Below are positions 3,554 to 42,455 of a stretch of 42,455 nt of DNA, in pieces. Position numbers and translations under genes: made by a program. The stretch spans positions 1 to 42,455 of IMG/VR virus record IMGVR_UViG_3300029515_000012. One strand, given 5' to 3'. Source of the DNA: a virus. The notes beneath the pieces are model-generated. The model saw only the letters and a list, made by a program, of their open reading frames with translations. It was not told the origin of the DNA and searched no databases. Positions within the stretch are counted from its first letter, which is position 1. Every line of letters begins with the position of its first letter.

Positions 3554-5665
3554 ATGATCGAGCTAAGCGTATCTCTCGCATCCAATGGCGTCGTCAAAGT
3601 GCCGGGCTATGAGCAGCTGGTGCGCTTTGGCTACACCAAAAACTGGGGCGTGTACCGCCTTGCCGTCACCGCTTCCGGCGAGTGGGAGGGCCTGACCATC
3701 CGGGCTTTCTGGCACGTCCCGGACGGCAAAGACCCGGCATCCTCGCTGGTGGTGGACGGCTATGTGGCCGTGCCCGCCAGCGTGACCGCACAGCCCGGCA
3801 ATGGGTGCGTGACCTTCGAGGGAAGCGATGGCACCCGCACCGTGACAAGTGCAGATCTGCGCTACCGTGTGGCCGCCAACTCCGGCACGGAGGACGGCAG
3901 CATGCCGGAGCCTGGCACCCCTGCATGGCAGGAGCTGGTGGATGCCGTGCACACCGATGCCACCGCCGCAGAGCAGGCTAAGACCGACGCGCAGACTGCA
4001 GCACAGCAGGCAGGAGCAGCCGCACAAAAGGCCGCTGCCAGCGAGAAAGCCGCCGGTGACGCACAGAAAAAGGCCGCCGAGAGCTTGCAGGAGCTCAAGA
4101 ACGGCATTGCATCCGGAGACTTTAAGGGCGAGCCGGGCACATCGCCCACAGTCACCGTGCAGGATATCACTGGCGGCCATCGTATCGTCATCACCGACGC
4201 GACCGGGACCAGCTCTGTCGATGTGCTGAATGGCAAGCAAGGCGACCCAGGTAGACCGGGTGATACAGGCGCAACACCTGAGCTCACAATCGGTACGGTG
4301 GAAGAGGGCGACGCGCCATCTGCGACAATTACTGGCACGGCTAAAAATCCCGTGCTAAACTTTACACTTAAAAGCGGCGCACCCGGCAAAGACGCCACCG
4401 TAGATGCCACCCTGAGCCAGAGCGGGCAGGCAGCTGACGCTAAAGTGACCGGCGATGCGCTGGCAAGCAAAGCAGTCATCGACGACGCCACAGTCGGCAC
4501 CGACGCATGGAGCAGCAAGCACATCGTGGACATGCTCTGCCCGCCCATCTCTGAAACCGGGAATCCTGTTGTGTGTCACCCCGTGGCGGGGAGTAAACTT
4601 TGCTGTAAGGTGAGCTGGGAGCCGACGCAGGAGGGCAGCGGTGACCCAAGCCCGGATAACATCCGGCCTATTTCCGGGCGGGATGCGGTGAAAGTGGAAC
4701 GGTGCGGGGAGAATCTGCTGAATTTGCCTATTGAAAAAGAATCGGGTGGAATCAGTGTTACAACAGAACCTGATGGGCGCTATCACTTGAGAGGCACATT
4801 GAATATGGACGGATTTTCGTGTAGCATCGGCACCGTCCGCCTGCCAGCAGGTACATACACTGTAAACCGAGCTTCAATCAGTACTCCTTTGTCTACTAAT
4901 GCAATTGTAATTACACTCAGAAAAAATACACCTACCGGCAGTGTAGCTTGGATTGAAACAAGTATCGGTGTCGGCAAAAATACTGGCAGCTTAGCCAAGC
5001 CAACAAATATTTCAATTTCCTTTTATGGCGCAATCGCATCTATTAAAAAGGGCACGGTGATAGATACATATTTTGAGCTTATACTTGTTTCTGGCACCAC
5101 CGCCCCCACCACCTACGCCCCATACACCGGCCAAACCTCCACTCTGACCCTGCCCCGCACCATCTACGGCGGTACGGTGGATGCAGTGACGGGAGAGGGG
5201 CAGGAGGCGTGGAAGTTGTTGACGCTGGATGGAACGGAACCATGGAATGCCGTTGGATCAGGTGATACTCTTTATTTTCAGAGCACTTCGATTTCCATTG
5301 GAACAAGAGTGCTGTCCAGGGGCGATTATTGCACAACGTTCCCTATTGCATCGGTTTCAAGTTCGAATACGGTACAAGGAGTAAACGGGTGGAAAACATC
5401 CCTATATCTGCGTTGGTCTACATTTGCGAACGTTGCCGCTTTGAAATCCTACCTCGCCGCCCAGTACGCAGCCGGAACCCCTGTGCAAGTCTGCTACAAG
5501 CTCGCCACTCCCACCCCTTTCATCGCGACAGGCGCACAGCCTATCCCCGCCCTCCCCGGCGTGAACACACTGATGACCGACGCGGACAGCGTGACGGTGA
5601 CCGGCAGAGCGGACCCCATCAAGCGCATCACTGACCTTGAGGACGCAGTAGCGTCCATGACCTAA
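3554..5665 (+). CDS. Tail fibre / receptor-binding protein 2 with collagen-like segment
   Basis: 703 aa. Ala-rich coiled coil, Gly-X-Y run (GEPGTSP...GKQGDPGRPGDTGATP), and motif TLSQSGQAADAKVTGDAL shared with fibre 1. The C-terminal half is AT-richer. Confidence 0.7.
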   Translation: MIELSVSLASNGVVKVPGYEQLVRFGYTKNWGVYRLAVTASGEWEGLTIRAFWHVPDGKDPASSLVVDGYVAVPASVTAQPGNGCVTFEGSDGTRTVTSADLRYRVAANSGTEDGSMPEPGTPAWQELVDAVHTDATAAEQAKTDAQTAAQQAGAAAQKAAASEKAAGDAQKKAAESLQELKNGIASGDFKGEPGTSPTVTVQDITGGHRIVITDATGTSSVDVLNGKQGDPGRPGDTGATPELTIGTVEEGDAPSATITGTAKNPVLNFTLKSGAPGKDATVDATLSQSGQAADAKVTGDALASKAVIDDATVGTDAWSSKHIVDMLCPPISETGNPVVCHPVAGSKLCCKVSWEPTQEGSGDPSPDNIRPISGRDAVKVERCGENLLNLPIEKESGGISVTTEPDGRYHLRGTLNMDGFSCSIGTVRLPAGTYTVNRASISTPLSTNAIVITLRKNTPTGSVAWIETSIGVGKNTGSLAKPTNISISFYGAIASIKKGTVIDTYFELILVSGTTAPTTYAPYTGQTSTLTLPRTIYGGTVDAVTGEGQEAWKLLTLDGTEPWNAVGSGDTLYFQSTSISIGTRVLSRGDYCTTFPIASVSSSNTVQGVNGWKTSLYLRWSTFANVAALKSYLAAQYAAGTPVQVCYKLATPTPFIATGAQPIPALPGVNTLMTDADSVTVTGRADPIKRITDLEDAVASMT

Positions 5666-5676
5666 AGGAGGTACAT

Positions 5677-5913
5677 ATGGCAATTAAATCGAAAGCACGC
5701 CACGACCTGACCCTGCGCTCCATCAAGCGAGAAATCGCCGCCGGACGCGACGTGGCATACTGGCTGGACAAGGCTTACACCCATCTGGACAGCGGATTGC
5801 TGACGGAGGACGACATCGCAGAGGTGGAAGCTCTGGCAAAGGCGTACTATGACGCACTGGACGCGGAGGACAGCGCGATTGATGCGCCGGACGATATGAC
5901 GCAGGAGGAATGA
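5677..5913 (+). CDS. Hypothetical acidic protein (78 aa)
   Basis: ATG is preceded by AAAGGAGGT. Immediately follows fibre 2. Confidence 0.5.
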   Translation: MAIKSKARHDLTLRSIKREIAAGRDVAYWLDKAYTHLDSGLLTEDDIAEVEALAKAYYDALDAEDSAIDAPDDMTQEE

Positions 5914-5928
5914 CCATGAGCAGCACTA

Positions 5929-6140
5929 CATATCCTGAAAAGTGGCCCAAAACGGCCATTTTAACAAATGAGTTCAACTTTTTAGCTGTTAAAAGTCGAA
6001 CTCATTGCGATTTTGGTAACGTCAACAAAATCGTGAAACCTGACCATTTTGCCAACCCCGGCAAAATGTTCGCCGCACAAGAACAATTTCGTGACATCAC
6101 GAAAATGGTGACAAAACGTCACCATTTTGCCGTGCTTGGC
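5929..6140. repeat. Array of seven consecutive palindromes/hairpins, including two roughly 47-bp imperfect direct repeats
   Basis: Hairpins read directly: 5929-5952, 5957-5996 (16-bp arms, 1 mismatch), 5998-6023, 6035-6058 (CATTTTGCC-N6-GGCAAAATG), 6077-6094 (TTTCGTGA-ca-TCACGAAA), 6095-6115 (ATGGTGAC-N5-GTCACCAT), 6110-6139 (CACCATTTTGCC-N6-GGCAATATGGTG). Confidence 0.85.
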
Positions 6141-6252
6141 AATATGGTGCGCAACGCCGGACAGCTGCCGCAGCCTTTCTGGCTCGGTGCTGCCTGTGGC
6201 GGCGGCTCGTGTGGTGCTGCCCGCTGCGCTGCAAGGACTTGACCGGCAGCAG

Positions 6253-6420
6253 ATGACCACCGCGATCAAAAGCGCACCGCTTGGGAGGGTAGACCGTAAG
6301 ATAGCCTTACTGCGGTACGTTGAGCGGCTCCCGCTGCCGGACATTGCAGCACAAACACATTACAGCCGGACAGCGATAGGCTACCGGCTGAAAGGCATTG
6401 AAAAAATGCTGAATGTGTGA
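6253..6420 (+). CDS. Small sigma-70 region-4-like HTH protein (start uncertain, frame open from 6127)
   Basis: RKIALLRYVERLPLPDIAAQTHYSRTAIGYRLKGIEKML resembles a region 4.2 HTH. No convincing RBS. Confidence 0.4.
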   Translation: MTTAIKSAPLGRVDRKIALLRYVERLPLPDIAAQTHYSRTAIGYRLKGIEKMLNV

Positions 6421-6479
6421 TATACTGTTTATACCGTCCGAAGTAGAGTACACACACTTCGGAGAAATGTGTACAGAGA

Positions 6480-6517
6480 GCCAGCGGAAGAACGTTTACC
6501 CGCTGGCTTTTCTTTTT
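6480..6517 (+). terminator. Rho-independent terminator
   Basis: GCCAGCGG-N12-CCGCTGGC followed by TTTTCTTTTT. Confidence 0.8.
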
Positions 6518-6635
6518 GCACGAATTGTGGTATAATAATCTCAACAAATCTGCCCGGCCTCTCGAAGAAGCGCATTAGGGTGGATATCTGAACCCATCAA
6601 GCCTCTCAACGATGCGTATCATGGTGGGTCTTTAA

Positions 6636-6706
6636 GGCTATGTAGCTCAGTTGGTAGAGCAGGGCGCACCCCGTCTATTGCGCTGGTTCAATTCCAGCCA
6701 TAGCAA
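6636..6706 (+). ncRNA. tRNA-like element or tRNA pseudogene with a 5-nt loop in place of the anticodon loop
   Basis: Acceptor GGCTATG/CATAGCA (1:72 mismatch). Canonical D arm GCTC-AGTTGGTA-GAGC. Stem GGGCG/CGTCT (2 G-U) closing only CACCC. Canonical T arm GCTGG-TTCAATT-CCAGC. 71 nt, no CCA. Confidence 0.4.
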
Positions 6707-6835
6707 GTCCGAAAATGCTTGAACGGTTTTGAATAGTGCGCATACGTCAAAATTGCGATAGCAGAAGTAGGCATTTTTAGTTGATACAGTCTCCCACCCG
6801 CCTACTTACAGTGCGTACCATGCGGGAGACGCAGA

Positions 6836-11942: not shown

Positions 11943-11992
11943 TTTGATTTGTAATCAGTGGGTTGCGGGTTCAACTCCTGTCACCAGCTCCA
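11943..11992 (+). other. attP core candidate: 3-prime half of a tRNA-Thr(UGU) gene (anticodon arm to CCA)
   Basis: Loop TT-TGT-AA. T arm GCGGG-TTCAACT-CCTGT. Acceptor 3-prime strand CACCAGC, then T and CCA. No matching 5-prime acceptor strand or D arm upstream. Lies 112 bp from the int stop. Confidence 0.7.
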
Positions 11993-12103: not shown

Positions 12104-13237
12104 TCAATACTTCATTTTTTGCATTTCCTGCAACAGATAAGCCGGGTCATTGTGGGACACGTACTTGTTGGCCGTGGTGGAGAAATTTTTGTGACCCAAG
12201 ATGGCCTGCACGGCGGTCTTTTCCAGGCCGCACTCCACCATCTTACTACTGGCCGTGTGGCGCAGCGTGTGTGGATGCACGCCCTCTATATGGCATTCCT
12301 GCATCAACGCTCGGAACTTTGTAGCCACGTTGCGCTTATCCAGCTTTGTGCCGGCCTTGGATGGAATCAGCCATTCGCATCCGCTGTCAAGCATCCAAAA
12401 GGCAATGATCTTGTAAATGGGCTCAAGGATGGGGATAATGCGGTTTTTGCCTGCCTCGGTCTTTTCGCCGCCCTGCATGTACCGCTCTTTCAGATGCACA
12501 TCCTCGCAGCGCATGGAAAGCAGCTCGTCAATGCGCATACCGGTGTACAGCAGCACCATGGCGATCTGTGCCGTTTGCCCAAGCCTTGGGTCATTCTGTC
12601 GGCTGCTGATCTGCTCGATCTCTTGGGCGGTCAGTGTGCGCTCTGCTTTTCCTGTAGCCGCCGGAAGCTGCAGCAGCATGGCATAATTTTTGTTTATGAT
12701 GTCCTGTGCCATTGCCCACTCGCAGATCTGGCTGAAAAGTGTGCGCTGCTTTTCGCAGGAGCTGCGGGAAAGCCCCTTTTCCACCATTGCGTCAATGACC
12801 TGTTGATAATCTGCCGCTTTCAAGTCCCGCAATTGTCGGTCGTATAGCGGCGCAGCCTTTGCATAGGCCAGCTCGTACCCCTTTTGCATGTCCGTGCTAA
12901 GCTTGTCAAATTTGGGCTGCGCTTTCCATTGGACATAGGCATCCGCAAAGGTGCACTTCAGAAGCGCAGCGGGGGTGTTCTGGGCGTTGTAAGCGTCCAG
13001 CGCTTGTACTGCTTCGCCTGCCGTTTCAAACGTGCCCAGAACATCCCTGCGGGCTGTGAGTGCAACATACGGTCTTGCCCGCGTCCCGCTCAGTTTATAC
13101 ACGCTGCCGCTGCCCTTTGGACGGCGTCGCTTTTTTCTTTGCTGCGGGGCGGCTTCCGGCTGTTTCTTCCCGCACCACGGACAAAAAGAAGCACCATCCG
13201 GGATCTCCTTCCGGCAACATGGCCTTACGCATTTCAT
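12104..13237 (-). CDS. int: Tyrosine integrase with N-terminal zinc ribbon
   Basis: GMRIDELL (Arg), HTLRHT (H-x-x-R), LGH and the Tyr in ANKYVSH. N-terminal CCRKEIPDGASFCPWCG. AAGGAG RBS. Confidence 0.9.
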   Translation of the reverse strand: MKCVRPCCRKEIPDGASFCPWCGKKQPEAAPQQRKKRRRPKGSGSVYKLSGTRARPYVALTARRDVLGTFETAGEAVQALDAYNAQNTPAALLKCTFADAYVQWKAQPKFDKLSTDMQKGYELAYAKAAPLYDRQLRDLKAADYQQVIDAMVEKGLSRSSCEKQRTLFSQICEWAMAQDIINKNYAMLLQLPAATGKAERTLTAQEIEQISSRQNDPRLGQTAQIAMVLLYTGMRIDELLSMRCEDVHLKERYMQGGEKTEAGKNRIIPILEPIYKIIAFWMLDSGCEWLIPSKAGTKLDKRNVATKFRALMQECHIEGVHPHTLRHTASSKMVECGLEKTAVQAILGHKNFSTTANKYVSHNDPAYLLQEMQKMKY

Positions 13238-13986: not shown

Positions 13987-14097
13987 ATGGATTTTGAGCA
14001 AAGAAACGGTAAAGGAACCGAAACGACCATCATCGACGGAATGCCCGCCAGCATCCTGACCGGCACCGAACGCACCCCTGCACCTTGGGAGGAATAA
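13987..14097 (+). CDS. Small hypothetical ORF (36 aa)
   Basis: AAAGGGGAA lies 7 nt before the ATG. Abuts the next ORF. Confidence 0.35.
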   Translation: MDFEQRNGKGTETTIIDGMPASILTGTERTPAPWEE

Positions 14098-14100
14098 GTT

Positions 14101-14313
14101 ATGAAAAAGCTGTCACACTTTCGCACCCATGCCCGTGCCCTGCTGGCCTGCTATTTGGATATGACCCCGGAGCAGCAGCGCCTTGCTCGCGCTTACATTC
14201 AAGATAAGGCCCTGCCGGAGGTGCAAGCCCTGCGTAACGCAGCCGGTACGCCCGGCGGGGCGCTGGCTGCTGACTTGCTGCAAAATTTGCAGCAGCCTTG
14301 CAACCGCGAATAG
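14101..14313 (+). CDS. Hypothetical protein (70 aa)
   Basis: GGGAGGA RBS. Confidence 0.5.
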   Translation: MKKLSHFRTHARALLACYLDMTPEQQRLARAYIQDKALPEVQALRNAAGTPGGALAADLLQNLQQPCNRE

Positions 14314-14437: not shown

Positions 14438-15055
14438 TTACAGGCCCAAGCGCTTACGCTGTTCCTCTTGCGATTTTCTGAAATTATCGTTGTGTGCCTC
14501 AATTTCGGCTTCAATTTGAGCGGCAATGTCTTCCCAATGGCTTGTATCGCCACCTGCTATCCGGCGGTTGATCTCCCACACGTCCAAATGGCAACAGCCA
14601 CGGCCAAGTGGAGCAACGGCTGCCTTGCAGTCGGTTACATAAGCATTGTCTTTTAGCTCTTGTTTTCCAAGCTCTGTAAGCTCGTATTTTTGCTTATCGT
14701 TCATCCGAATAAAGCCGCTAGCTTCAAGCGTTTTCAAGTGAGATCCAACGTTTTTGATGCCATACTGGTACCACCAGAGCCCCGGATAACCGTGCTTTGG
14801 ATGCGGGTACAGCTTTCCGCTTGAGCAATAGCTCAAAAGCTTGATTTCCGCAACGTAAAGGCCACGCTTTGACGGGTAAGAAATCTTTTTCCGTTCCTGA
14901 AAAGTAATGACTTTGCATGTGCCGTTTACGGCATCAAAAGACATCGACGGCGCATAGTCTTTATAATAAGACGGATCTTGATAATACTGCCGCTCTTCTG
15001 GAGGGATAGGCGGTTCTACGTCCTGATTAAAGGCAAAAGCAGTGAATAAATCCAT
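14438..15055 (-). CDS. Hypothetical cytoplasmic protein (205 aa) with a possible winged-helix segment
   Basis: Spaced 3 nt after the upstream gene. LEASGFIRMNDKQKYELTELGKQEL resembles a wHTH wing. AT-richer than the flanks. Confidence 0.65.
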   Translation of the reverse strand: MDLFTAFAFNQDVEPPIPPEERQYYQDPSYYKDYAPSMSFDAVNGTCKVITFQERKKISYPSKRGLYVAEIKLLSYCSSGKLYPHPKHGYPGLWWYQYGIKNVGSHLKTLEASGFIRMNDKQKYELTELGKQELKDNAYVTDCKAAVAPLGRGCCHLDVWEINRRIAGGDTSHWEDIAAQIEAEIEAHNDNFRKSQEEQRKRLGL

Positions 15056-15058
15056 TGC

Positions 15059-15964
15059 TTACACCTCTTTTAGCTCTTCAAGCTTCAAATCCAGATAGCT
15101 TCTTGAACGCACAGGCATTTTGTCAAAGTAAGGCTCAAAGGATGCATACCACCTTTGATTCGAGTTTGTGCGTCCGCGTTCCGTTTTAAGGGTAGAAAGC
15201 TTTTGGAGCTGCTTTATATAGGCATTGTCTATCAGGACGTTTACGGTGTCGGCAGTGGTTTCCTGACTGAGAGCTTGAGCTTTCAAAGAGGAAAGGTCAC
15301 TGGTGAATTTTATCCCTTTCTGTTGCAGTTCGAGCATGTTGTCCAACCGTTCCATAGCGAGATCGTACCTCGAAAAGAAAGTTTCCGGGTTAGTCGTTTT
15401 CTGCATGATATTCAAGGAATCTTGAAATTCATCCATGAAAATCTTGGCGTTCATCCGGTCAATTTCCGCTATTGCTTCTTCTGGGGTAGTCCTATCAACG
15501 CTTTCCATCGCAGGGGAATTAAAAGTATCTGAAGCAGCCGCGGTGTCTCCTGAATGATAAGAGCGGTATTTGGTTTTGTTATAATCGACAACGCAAATTG
15601 CTGCGACCAAAAAAGGGAAAGCGAAGAAAGCGATGAACAAAAAACAAATTTCCGAAATATCGAAAGAAGGCTTCCAGATGCTCAGTATAGGACACAAGCA
15701 AATTAAACCAATTGCAAAGCAACCAGCCCACTGTAAAAGCGTAGGCCTTGCGTCTTTCCATTTTACAGATGCTCGCTTGTACGGCGTTCTTTCCTTGTAA
15801 GTCGGTTGAACTGTAGAACCAGAAGGAACGGAAGAAATGATAGCTTTTGCAATCGCACGCTGCGTGCGTTTGCTTGGCGTGATAGTTTTCTTTACCTTCT
15901 TAAGCCAGCGCCTGTTTTCGCGGTCTCGTTGATCGTAAGCCGAAACTTTTCCGCGCCGTGACAT
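15059..15964 (-). CDS. Hypothetical membrane protein (2 TM) with a basic N-terminus and a helical C-terminal domain
   Basis: TM helices LLQWAGCFAIGLICLCPILSIW and ICFLFIAFFAFPFLVAAICVV. ATG at 15964 lies 7 nt after GAGGTG. Confidence 0.65.
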   Translation of the reverse strand: MSRRGKVSAYDQRDRENRRWLKKVKKTITPSKRTQRAIAKAIISSVPSGSTVQPTYKERTPYKRASVKWKDARPTLLQWAGCFAIGLICLCPILSIWKPSFDISEICFLFIAFFAFPFLVAAICVVDYNKTKYRSYHSGDTAAASDTFNSPAMESVDRTTPEEAIAEIDRMNAKIFMDEFQDSLNIMQKTTNPETFFSRYDLAMERLDNMLELQQKGIKFTSDLSSLKAQALSQETTADTVNVLIDNAYIKQLQKLSTLKTERGRTNSNQRWYASFEPYFDKMPVRSRSYLDLKLEELKEV

Positions 15965-16007
15965 GCCGCAACACCTCACACATATTTACTATAAGGAGGA
16001 ACCAAAA

Positions 16008-16115
16008 ATGCAGGACACTTCATTCAGCCCGGACGAAATCAGAAAAATCATCGAAAAGCTAAAGAGTGACCCTGCATTTCGTCAGAAAGTCCTCGTTATT
16101 CTTAATAAGGATTAG
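16008..16115 (+). CDS. Small ORF (35 aa) with a strong RBS, convergently overlapping the CI-like gene stop
   Basis: TAAGGAGGA lies 8 nt before the ATG. MQDTSFSPDEIRKIIEKLKSDPAFRQKVLVILNKD. Confidence 0.35.
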   Translation: MQDTSFSPDEIRKIIEKLKSDPAFRQKVLVILNKD

Positions 16116-16447
16116 AGAAGTTCTCGGATAGCGTTCTTTTTCGCTTCCGAAGCTCCAAGAATCCGTCTTACAAGCTCAGCGTCTTCAGGAGACAGGCTGG
16201 ACAAGTCCACGCCCTCCGGGGTGCTGGGCTTTTCTTTTTGTTCTTCGCCCATAAGCTCTTCAATAGAAATTCGTAGAAAATCAGACACAAGCAGTAGCTT
16301 ATCTTTCGGCGGATAGCGCTTTCCATTAGCCCATTTTCCTACTGTTCCGTTGGCAAATTTCAAATCTTTCTCCATTTTTGTAATGGAGCTTCCTTGATTT
16401 TTGCACGATACACGGATGAATTCTACCAGCTCAGGCAAAGAACGCAT
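16112..16447 (-). CDS. CI-like XRE-family repressor
   Basis: HTH SSITKMEKDLKFANGTVGKWANG. ATG 16447 lies 6 nt after GGAGGAG. Divergent from the Cro-like gene. Confidence 0.8.
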   Translation of the reverse strand: MRSLPELVEFIRVSCKNQGSSITKMEKDLKFANGTVGKWANGKRYPPKDKLLLVSDFLRISIEELMGEEQKEKPSTPEGVDLSSLSPEDAELVRRILGASEAKKNAIRELL

Positions 16448-16461
16448 AAAAAACTCCTCCA

Positions 16462-16506
16462 ATAGCCTAATTTTCTATTGACAACTAGAAAATTAGGCTA
16501 TATAAT
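16462..16506 (+). promoter_or_regulatory. Early rightward promoter TTGACA-17-TATAAT embedded in a perfect 16-bp inverted-repeat operator
   Basis: ATAGCCTAATTTTCTA-ttgacaac-TAGAAAATTAGGCTAT. -35 at 16478-16483 and -10 at 16501-16506. Confidence 0.8.
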
Positions 16507-16641
16507 AGAGAGCGTAAGGAGCAAACAAAACCAAAGCCCCTGACAATATTATATCGGGCAGACGCTAGATTTTATTCACTTTGTACCTCGCAACTACATA
16601 GTAGCATATTTTCTAGTGATTTTCAAGCCCGGAAAGGAGAA

Positions 16642-16875
16642 TTGCTAGTGAATGTATCAAAAATTGACCAGTTTTGCAAGTTGCACGGGCTGAGCCGCAC
16701 CGATCTGGAGGCGGCGGCGGGCCTGAGCAACGGCGCAATCGGAAAGTGGGAGCGCTCGATTTACGGGCCCAGCCTTTCACAGCTGCTCAAGCTCGCAAGG
16801 TATTTCAAGGTTACACTGAACGAGCTTGTGGTCTACGATGAGGAAGGAAAAGAAAAGGAGAATACAAGTGCCTGA
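16642..16875 (+). CDS. Cro-like XRE-family HTH protein
   Basis: LSRTDLEAAAGLSNGAIGKWERS HTH. An alternative GTG start at 16648 follows AAAGGAGA. Confidence 0.75.
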   Translation: MLVNVSKIDQFCKLHGLSRTDLEAAAGLSNGAIGKWERSIYGPSLSQLLKLARYFKVTLNELVVYDEEGKEKENTSA

Positions 16876-27492: not shown

Positions 27493-27568
27493 ACTCCCGT
27501 AGCTCAATTGGTAGAGCGCTGGTCTCCAAAACCAGAGGATGCAGGCTCGGTCCCTGTCGGGAATGCCA
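27493..27568 (+). tRNA. tRNA-Trp (anticodon CCA), CCA-encoded
   Basis: 76 nt. D arm GCTC-AATTGGTA-GAGC. Anticodon arm CTGGT-CTCCAAA-ACCAG. T arm GCAGG-CTCGGTC-CCTGT (unusual T loop). Discriminator G then CCA. One C-A mismatch in the acceptor stem. Confidence 0.75.
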
Positions 27569-33769: not shown

Positions 33770-33843
33770 GCCGTTTTCGCTCAATGGCAGAGCTGCTGAT
33801 TTGTAACCAGCGGACGCGGGTTCGATTCCTGCAAGCGGCACCA
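33770..33843 (+). tRNA. tRNA-Thr (anticodon UGU), CCA-encoded
   Basis: 74 nt. Acceptor GCCGTTT/AAGCGGC. D arm GCTC-AATGGCA-GAGC. Anticodon arm GCTGA-TTTGTAA-CCAGC (one A-C). T arm GCGGG-TTCGATT-CCTGC. Discriminator A then CCA. Confidence 0.85.
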
Positions 33844-41704: not shown

Positions 41705-42455
41705 GCTACAAAGTTTATGCGGGCGTCCAGACCGGCGTTGACGTGTGGAAGACAAAGACCTGCATTTACGACCCAACGGACTACACGGACACAAAAAAGC
41801 TCATCAGTCCAACTTTGACACGGGAGGTGAGCAAGGCCGGTAGCTTGGAATTCACCCTGCCGCTTGGCAATGTGGCCCACTCAGCTTTGCAAAAAATGCG
41901 CACGACCGTGTCCGTAGAGCAAGACGGTGTGCGCATCTGGGAGGGCAGGCCCATGAGCCATGAGCAGGATTTTATGCTGCGTCAAAAAGTCTTTTGCGAG
42001 GGAGAGCTGGCCTACCTCAACGACAGCTCCGTTGCGCCATATACAGCCAAAGACGTGACGATCAAGCAATTTCTTTCGTTCCTGCTGGAAAATCATACCG
42101 GCATGGTGGACGCATACAAGGCGTTTACCTGTGGAAATGTTGGCTTTCCGAGCACCAGCGTGGTGGTTCCAGAACTGCATAACTGCGTGATGAAACTAGA
42201 CTACATGGCAGGTACTCCGGACAGTGACGGCGATTATATGTATGAATATGGACTTTATACCTCATCCGGCGTTCAACTTGTGAGCCAATATGAAGCTGGC
42301 TTCTCGGATGACGACACGGCCCCGGATCCATCTGCGTACAGATGGACGCTGAATGAAAAGCATGCAGATTCTTCCATAAACGGGTATATCTGGCGCACAG
42401 GAAACGGCCTGTTTTCCGTGAGCGTAAATGTGGCCCTGCCCTTGGACGGAGATGG
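41701..42455 (+). CDS. Tail-associated protein (Tal), N-terminal part, continuing at position 1 (see 1..1027)
   Basis: ATGA overlap with Dit. No stop before the window end (translated by hand). The last 108 nt duplicate positions 1-108. Confidence 0.8.
   Translation, partial: MSYKVYAGVQTGVDVWKTKTCIYDPTDYTDTKKLISPTLTREVSKAGSLEFTLPLGNVAHSALQKMRTTVSVEQDGVRIWEGRPMSHEQDFMLRQKVFCEGELAYLNDSSVAPYTAKDVTIKQFLSFLLENHTGMVDAYKAFTCGNVGFPSTSVVVPELHNCVMKLDYMAGTPDSDGDYMYEYGLYTSSGVQLVSQYEAGFSDDDTAPDPSAYRWTLNEKHADSSINGYIWRTGNGLFSVSVNVALPLDGD
42348..42455. repeat. Terminal direct repeat copy 2 (identical to 1..108)
   Basis: Direct comparison. Confidence 0.95.

Follow-up and report, generated by a model that had tools for sequence, protein, structure and literature searches.

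A repressor-proximal gene pair in temperate phages of the human gut as a candidate superinfection exclusion or defense module

Two-gene accessory modules that combine a membrane protein with a soluble partner are known from the immunity regions of temperate phages. In lambda, RexA/RexB lie beside the repressor and are dispensable for the genetic switch, and gp30/gp31 of mycobacteriophage Sbash and gp30/gp31 of mycobacteriophage Butters are RexAB-like accessory pairs. The niche between integrase and repressor also holds genes for membrane-associated proteins, such as Sie2009 of lactococcal phages and Ltp of Streptococcus thermophilus phage TP-J34, the latter an experimentally characterized superinfection exclusion protein. 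Here we analyze a gene pair, A and B, in an IMG/VR virus genome (record IMGVR_UViG_3300029515_000012, positions 1 to 42,455; this whole stretch of 42,455 nucleotides [nt] is called the window). As an immunity-region cassette of a membrane protein and a soluble partner, the pair appears to belong to a kind of element already known from RexAB: protein A, with two transmembrane (TM) segments, and the soluble protein B are encoded between the CI-like repressor gene and the integrase gene (int), and 39 of 66 sister phages have neither. The sister set comprised 80 phages that share the XRE gene of the window (84 to 99% identity), 66 of which have at least 3.5 kb of sequence upstream of that gene.

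The cassette differs from these systems in several respects. Neither A nor B resembles RexAB in sequence or fold, with no match in PADLOC (whose models we assume to include RexAB), in Pfam, or by Foldseek. RexB is a channel-like protein with four TM segments, whereas A has two, joined to a large conserved domain that is predicted to be cytoplasmic; the gene for the membrane protein comes first in the A/B cassette; and cotranscription with CI is doubtful, since an opposite-strand open reading frame (ORF) intervenes. An Ltp-family protein occupies the identical slot in sister phages, but A and B have neither a match to the Pfam family Lipoprotein_Ltp nor any other similarity to the Ltp and Sie proteins; Ltp acts outside the membrane, whereas A is predicted to be almost wholly cytoplasmic; and the known Sie proteins are encoded by single genes rather than by a pair. 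What appears to be new is the linkage of B with ACD, the conserved domain of A; the association of ACD genes with CI genes across Firmicutes phages; and the position of both families outside Pfam and the defense catalogs.

We tentatively read A and B as two parts of one accessory cargo module that is expressed in the lysogen and acts in superinfection exclusion or defense, a reading to which we give slightly less than an even chance. The two genes are linked in several ways. A preliminary description of the region had placed two minus-strand genes 3 nt apart, on the same strand as the CI-like gene and int, and the ORFs and their translations agree: the stop codon of A (TAA, 15059 to 15061) and the ATG of B (15053 to 15055) leave a 3-nt spacer. 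The ribosome-binding site (RBS) of B falls within the final codons of A, which indicates that the two genes are likely to be translationally coupled, and the C terminus of A (..LKEV) is almost invariant among aligned homologs. Across loci, the junction is either a 3-nt spacer or a 4-nt overlap. B directly follows A in all informative viral loci (27/27; A at 50 to 100% identity) and in all metagenome loci (8/8; A at 50% and 93% identity in two look-ups). Absence of co-conservation, which had been proposed as grounds for abandoning the defense or exclusion reading, is thus contradicted by co-occurrence in 35 of 35 loci, with A down to 50% identity.

ACD and B also meet in other arrangements. Four distinct viral contigs encode single proteins of 417 to 427 residues in which a B domain is followed by ACD, with no TM segment; on contig 033537, the fusion gene sits in this slot in a sister phage whose CI, XRE, and int genes are the same. 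The order is reversed on six other contigs, where the gene for a DUF4236-ACD protein comes 15 nt after a long B homolog; in a mobilizable element, 8 nt separate a TM2-ACD gene from a B homolog downstream of it. A profile of the A family retrieved only 413 clusters (E ≤ 1e-3; 50%-identity representatives among 1.8 billion representative clusters), and with a domain this rare chance juxtaposition is very unlikely. The rarity of ACD, the independent juxtapositions, and the fusions together argue that ACD and B are linked functionally and probably also physically. Their link is nevertheless facultative, as set out below.

Both genes are real and under purifying selection. There were 111 homologous clusters for A and 50 for B. 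By a crude pairwise NG86 calculation, the ratio of nonsynonymous to synonymous substitution rates (dN/dS) was 0.17 for A (ACD, 0.11) and 0.18 for B (winged helix, 0.10); all regions are under purifying selection, and only the linker of A (residues 136 to 160; dN/dS = 0.44) is relaxed. The G+C content of the cassette is 45.5% against 54.7% for the window, within the lowest 3% of equal-sized windows, and the minimum of the whole window falls in the cassette region. The preliminary description had set about 37 to 43% at 15541 to 15660 against about 65% in int and had concluded that the cassette was of foreign origin. The first value stands (38.3%), but int is at 54.9% and the segment of int that had been counted (12601 to 12660) at 60%. 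The dip is therefore real but moderate only, and the low-G+C stretch extends over the CI gene and the small ORF between CI and A, so that the case for foreign origin is correspondingly weaker.

Hydropathy, charge, and an AlphaFold2 (AF2) model agree with the earlier depiction of A as a 301-residue protein with a basic N terminus, two TM helices, and a helical domain. Hydrophobic spans at about residues 76 to 97 and 105 to 127 correspond to AF2 helices 76 to 95 and 103 to 140, joined by the short loop WKPSFD, and the external loop comprises about 6 to 9 residues. By the positive-inside rule, A is predicted to be an inner-membrane protein with both its tail and ACD in the cytoplasm. The model has an overall predicted local distance difference test (pLDDT) score of 73, which exceeds 85 over residues 170 to 300, and a low-confidence linker precedes ACD. 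Among close relatives, the N-terminal and TM part is mosaic in the alignment and ACD is the conserved part, marked by two invariant or nearly invariant motifs, T-x-N-P-x-T-F-F-S-R-Y-D and L-K-T-x-K-G-K (L-K-T-E-(R/K)-G in the ACD of A).

Nearly all of the 413 clusters align with A over residues of about 160 to 295 only. A weakly matches PHROG 17596 (E = 1.7e-6) and PHROG 7974 (E = 2.5e-6), both without assigned function, and one DUF4236-ACD protein matches both (E = 1.6e-30 and 1.1e-13). Proteins of the two PHROGs share ACD with A, and members of PHROG 7974 carry DUF4236 in place of the TM hairpin; a literature search on DUF4236 found nothing relevant. Among 143 representatives, ACD was fused to DUF4236 (21 cases), TM2 (4), Phage_min_cap2 (2), and SAP (2) and, in one case each, to RNase_T, FtsK_gamma, TerB_N, Phage_Mu_F, and SHOCT; other ACD proteins are joined to two- or three-TM anchors. 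A Foldseek search of BFVD with the A model returned uncharacterized phage proteins and two fusions (a "restriction endonuclease," E = 7e-3, and a "minor capsid" protein). ACD is thus a mobile domain, whose partners are membrane anchors (2TM, 3TM, and TM2), DNA-directed modules (SAP, FtsK_gamma, RNase_T, and the "restriction endonuclease" of BFVD), and domains of obscure role (DUF4236 and TerB_N). A degenerate NPxTFFSRYD pattern found no ACD loci in IMG/VR beyond those already collected. We also considered a recurring triad of winged helix-turn-helix (wHTH) protein, ACD, and membrane anchor that would include tail-anchored wHTH proteins of sister phages (106 and 134 residues); this was rejected because these proteins assort independently of ACD.

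B consists of an acidic, Pro/Tyr-rich N-terminal region, a basic core, and a long C-terminal helix. It had been described as a 205-residue soluble protein with a possible winged helix, and the AF2 model (pLDDT 77) has a wHTH-like topology (H-H-H-beta-beta), although all family scores remain below threshold: in Pfam, HTH_12 reached an E value of 3e-4 (21.0 bits; cutoff, 21.4), HTH_45 17.3 bits (25.5), and PadR 12.3 bits (27). The top Foldseek matches were the DNA-binding domains of Sso10a, PadR, MarR, and CggR, none significant (E ≥ 0.13); the best PDB profile match was PadR (E = 0.089), and JGI labels B as "PadR family." With PadR, MarR, and Sso10a proteins the core of B appears to share the order helix-helix-recognition helix-wing; the pattern L..LE..GFI...Y.LT..G and a basic character are further points of resemblance. 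B differs from these proteins in its subthreshold scores, in a unique invariant aromatic loop (YPxPxxGYPGxWW), in its extra N- and C-terminal regions, and in having no PadR-type dimerization domain. The invariant signature of the core is GLYxAEIxLL...YPxPxxGYPGxWWxxYGI...KYxLTxxG.

By sequence comparison, B is the short form of a wider family. Clostridia, Coriobacteriia, Selenomonadales, and other groups have long homologs of 320 to 420 residues, with cores 36 to 50% identical to that of B; in these, a SAP domain interrupts the wing and the C terminus is TPR-like. Their genes often come after an XRE gene on mobile elements and prophages. The TPR-like domain is unrelated to ACD, and the idea that it is a divergent ACD was rejected (hhalign probability, 0.6%). 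A survey of 83 immediate neighbors of long B homologs (±1 gene), made without a formal enrichment test, contained 11 XRE regulators, five DUF4236 proteins, and about 8 to 10 known defense proteins (PD-Lambda-1, PDC-S11, type IV restriction endonuclease, HNH, PD-T4-1, type IIG restriction-modification, and PbeA); ion channels, a T5orf172 protein, and an Mrr-like nuclease that has TM segments also stood among them. At some loci, the B homolog is directly coupled to a nuclease of the HNH_2 or Mrr-like kind. These neighborhoods point to a mobile or defense-island setting for the B family. As a separate observation, four loci (L012 to L015; e.g., L012 2289 to 4548) have a long B homolog 28 nt downstream of the gene for a 383-residue HNH_2 nuclease; the elements concerned carry serine recombinases, and HNH_2 with long B is another candidate two-gene module.

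The position of the pair had been put between int/XRE and CI/Cro, in a hotspot for accessory genes. Pfam confirms all four context genes, and the 66 sister phages show many alternative cargos. An ACD gene is present in 27 of them, 7 of which also have B, and one of the 39 phages with neither gene has a CI 89% identical to that of the window. By this comparison, A and B are dispensable for the CI/Cro/int circuit, and the slot beside the repressor is an accessory hotspot of the lysogeny module. The commonest cargo, a DUF4428-SHOCT protein, combines a zinc ribbon, a glycine-zipper-like hydrophobic segment, and a SHOCT C terminus; in 23 loci it is preceded by a soluble 203-residue ACD protein. Other cargos are given in Table 1. 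In many of the sister phages (among L175 to L254), the leader AATATGTGTGAGGTGKTGCGGYATG precedes A, the B-ACD fusion, or soluble ACD genes of 244 to 246 residues, and its core ATGTGTGAGGTG precedes more divergent cargo, namely the 203-residue ACD gene, the DUF4428-SHOCT gene, and one lipoprotein gene. Cargo thus seems to be swapped just behind a common leader and RBS; the leader marks the 5′ boundary of the slot and is a probable promoter or translation initiation region of its own.

More distant ACD proteins are encoded right after a CI-type repressor and before an integrase or recombinase at L119 to L122, L265, L266, L267/268, and in phage FP_Lugh; the one exception is a distant ACD gene within a tail module. 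The repressors concerned are of the XRE or the XRE plus Peptidase_S24 type, and the gap is 1 nt in L266. In FP_Lugh, a cultivated phage of Faecalibacterium prausnitzii, protein AUV56579.1 resembles A in having a basic tail, two TM segments, and ACD, and its gene likewise follows the repressor and precedes int; it differs from A in its ACD, only about 31% identical, and in the absence of a B gene. The FP_Lugh paper does not discuss this gene.

The gene order in the window is attP, int, XRE, two small plus-strand ORFs, B, A, a 35-residue plus-strand ORF, the CI-like gene, operator/promoter, and the Cro-like gene (Table 1). The 36- and 70-residue plus-strand ORFs form the 3′-side boundary of the cassette and are kept in some sister phages. 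The 35-residue ORF separates the cassette from the CI gene, and sister phages keep its protein with conservative substitutions; phages of other CI types have a different 37-residue ORF at the equivalent position. Because small genes on the opposite strand stand on both sides, the cassette probably forms a separate transcription unit and does not simply belong to the CI operon or the int operon. Between CI and Cro, a perfect inverted repeat, with half-site-like copies at 16608 to 16619, overlaps a perfect sigma-70 promoter; the genetic switch probably has its operator and early promoter here, at 16462 to 16506. A search around the cassette found no copy of this inverted repeat nearby and likewise no repeated operator-like site. 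Coregulation of the cassette by CI was considered and rejected on this ground; the promoter scan, moreover, picked up no strong minus-strand promoter upstream of A.

Positions 1 to 108 and 42348 to 42455 are identical and form an exact direct repeat of 108 bp at the termini. Accordingly, the window is a complete temperate phage genome, a circular assembly of about 42.3 kb without host flanks, and not the integrated prophage that had been supposed. The attP core was located by aligning free and integrated relatives; in two integrated copies, L006 (9728 to 9802) and L007 (9727 to 9801), an intact tRNA-Thr gene lies beside int. A second group of relatives, represented by L002, has a longer integrase and integrates elsewhere, beside DUF1836/DegV genes. 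The phage also has tRNAs of its own, tRNA-Thr(UGU) at 33770 to 33843, tRNA-Trp at 27493 to 27568, and a third tRNA-like element at 6636 to 6706 that is an Rfam match (44.5 bits) with no ARAGORN call; the phage tRNA-Thr(UGU) is clearly distinct in sequence from the host tRNA used for integration. The host is probably Faecalibacterium or a related member of the Oscillospiraceae.

Table 1. Features of the A/B cassette, of its surroundings, and of the loci compared with it (window positions unless a locus is named; aa, amino acids)
Feature	Position	Strand	Evidence or remarks
Gene A	ORF 15059..15979; ATG at 15964, preceded by GAGGTG, hence 15059-15964	-	301 aa
A, basic N-terminal tail, residues 1-75	15740-15964	-	22 K/R, isoelectric point (pI) 11.5, partly helical
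A, TM hairpin, residues about 76-127	15584-15739	-	Hydropathy scan, AF2 model
A, ACD (all-helical), residues about 160-301	15062-15487	-	Alignments, PHROG matches, pLDDT >85
Gene B	14438-15055	-	205 aa
RBS of B, GAGGTG	15062-15067	-	Inside the last codons of A (..KEV and stop)
B, winged-helix core, residues 61-140	14636-14875	-	Alignment, weak Pfam matches, Foldseek, pI 9.4
Leader and RBS AATATGTGTGAGGTGTTGCGGC (AATATGTGTGAGGTGKTGCGGYATG), directly upstream of the A ATG	15965-15986 for AATATGTGTGAGGTGTTGCGGC; 15962-15986 for AATATGTGTGAGGTGKTGCGGYATG	-	Sister-phage comparison
Small ORF between CI and A, 35 aa	16008-16115	+	Strong RBS
CI-like XRE repressor	16112-16447	-	Pfam HTH_3, PHROG 8
Perfect 16-nt inverted repeat ATAGCCTAATTTTCTA N8 TAGAAAATTAGGCTAT	16462-16477 / 16486-16501		
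Perfect sigma-70 promoter TTGACA-17-TATAAT	16478-16506	+	Overlaps the inverted repeat, points to the Cro-like gene
Cro-like gene	16642-16875	+	Pfam
Small ORF, 70 aa, high G+C	14101-14313	+	Convergent with B
Small ORF, 36 aa, high G+C	13987-14097	+	Convergent with B
XRE protein, 195 aa	13241-13828	-	Pfam
Tyrosine integrase, int	12104-13237	-	Pfam
attP core	11945-11992	+	Exact match to the host tRNA-Thr(UGU) gene over its 48 nt at the 3′ end; single match in the window
Cargo: DUF4428-SHOCT protein, 238 aa	e.g., L251 5653-6369		49/80 loci, commonest cargo; PHROG 888
Cargo: tail-anchored winged-helix protein			26/80 loci
Cargo: lipoprotein, 244 aa			11/80 loci
Cargo: Zn-ribbon/TM protein with two Lipoprotein_Ltp repeats	e.g., L243 5787-6350		7/80 loci; Pfam E = 2.8e-29
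FP_Lugh, MG711464 (L270)	3841-6775		LexA-like repressor, 302-aa 2TM-ACD protein AUV56579.1, tyrosine integrase

If A and B do form one exclusion or defense module, ACD would bind B and keep it at the cytoplasmic side of the membrane. Expression in the lysogen would start at the leader immediately ahead of A or come from CI by read-through, and the lysogen would be protected from superinfecting phages. Incoming DNA or an ejected phage protein might be caught at the membrane, as an exclusion mechanism; alternatively, in an abortive-infection version, sensing could fall to B and ACD and the effector role to the TM hairpin, as in RexAB-type pairs. The exclusion or defense role itself is suggested by context. 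The CI-proximal position of distant ACD genes is counted in its favor because that position is typical of genes expressed in the lysogen. Also counted in its favor are the coupling and domain linkage of A and B, the accessory hotspot with its Ltp-family cargo, the partners of ACD, the defense proteins beside long B homologs, the purifying selection on both genes, and the lack of a CI operator copy near the cassette.

Family and structure searches bear out the preliminary statement that neither protein belongs to a recognizable family (Pfam, NCBIfam, PADLOC, PDB, and Foldseek agree). A had no match in Pfam or NCBIfam, and B had no PADLOC or PHROG family; sequence-profile searches of PDB gave no significant match for either protein, and a Foldseek search of PDB with the A model gave nothing significant (best E = 0.8). 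In INPHARED phages, neither blastn of the region nor tblastn of B returned anything. Clear homology to housekeeping phage functions, which had likewise been named as grounds against a defense or exclusion role, was not found for A or B in these searches.

Several observations weigh against exclusion or defense by a joint module. Neither A nor B matches PADLOC-DB v2 at E ≤ 1, and no homolog from a known defense or exclusion system was found through PADLOC, Pfam, NCBIfam, PDB, or Foldseek. ACD was found nearby at only 1 of 74 genomic B loci; many ACD genes stand without B, each family occurring mostly without the other; and the A-like protein of FP_Lugh has no B partner. TM segments are absent from the B-ACD fusions, and anchoring in the membrane is therefore no inherent property of the pair. 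The promoter scan upstream of A showed no strong minus-strand promoter, an opposite-strand ORF separates A from CI, and the crude dN/dS calculation gave no sign of positive selection or of an arms race. Finally, the close association of ACD with CI genes could equally reflect control of lysogeny.

A bolder extension of the module reading, which we regard as doubtful, is that ACD is a previously undescribed, repressor-linked hub domain of Firmicutes temperate phages that couples modules for DNA binding or processing (the B winged helix, SAP, FtsK-gamma, and nucleases) to membrane anchors. A and B would then be the split form of a new class of membrane-tethered sensor, of DNA or of phage components, that excludes or aborts superinfection by a mechanism unlike those of catalogued defense systems.

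Of the alternatives, accessory control of lysogeny survives best, although we consider it improbable. B would be a wHTH transcription factor that A sequesters or releases at the membrane through ACD, passing a membrane or envelope signal on to prophage induction, excision, immunity, or host gene expression. Such a role would suit the ACD genes that immediately follow CI-type repressors in a wide range of unrelated prophages (sometimes at 1 to 17 nt), the basic wHTH core of B with its PadR/MarR-like topology, the XRE genes often ahead of long B homologs (11/83), and the TM-free B-ACD fusions. However, both genes are missing from sister phages whose CI, XRE, and int are the same or similar, which places the module outside the core switch. 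The search around the cassette also turned up no repeated operator-like site, and the slot otherwise holds surface or membrane cargo such as the Ltp-family protein.

Less probable again is that A and B are independent morons, each working by itself; A might then be a stand-alone membrane exclusion protein and B a separate DNA-binding factor. Translational coupling, co-occurrence in 35 of 35 loci down to 50% identity of A, and independent fusions and reversed-order adjacency of a domain as rare as ACD all tell against independence, even though A-like 2TM-ACD proteins occur without B in FP_Lugh, L119, and L121, B homologs lack ACD in most contexts, and the slot as a whole is a mosaic in which small genes assort independently.

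Quite unlikely, in our view, is a toxin-antitoxin (TA)-like addiction module in which A would damage the membrane, B would neutralize or repress it, and the prophage would be stabilized. A small two-TM protein in a tight operon with a partner of DNA-binding type would suit such a module, and B homologs are paired elsewhere with nucleases (HNH_2 and Mrr-like). Yet conservation in A falls on the cytoplasmic ACD and not on the TM hairpin, A-like proteins exist without B, and no TA or defense model is matched: Pfam, NCBIfam, and PADLOC showed no toxin or antitoxin homology for A or B. The gene order speaks against this explanation as well, since a toxin gene in first position is atypical among TA systems. 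Lysogenic conversion of host physiology (membrane or envelope, or stress tolerance) instead of phage resistance has similarly little to recommend it: membrane localization and a slot shared with lipoprotein or secreted cargo in sister phages would fit, but both functional domains of A are predicted to be cytoplasmic, the external loop has only 6 to 9 residues, and the fusion partners of ACD suggest nucleic acids.

The exact A protein occurs on 151 public contigs, with close relatives on many others; the cassette is thus a frequent element of human-gut viromes, where its carriers are probably phages of Faecalibacterium-like key commensals. The A-like gene of FP_Lugh and the CI-adjacent ACD genes offer a cultivable, experimentally approachable entry. 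If A and B do serve exclusion or defense, they would constitute a new, uncatalogued system that shapes competition among gut phages, and this would be the first function for ACD (413 clusters) and for the B wHTH family, which is widespread in Clostridia and Coriobacteriia.

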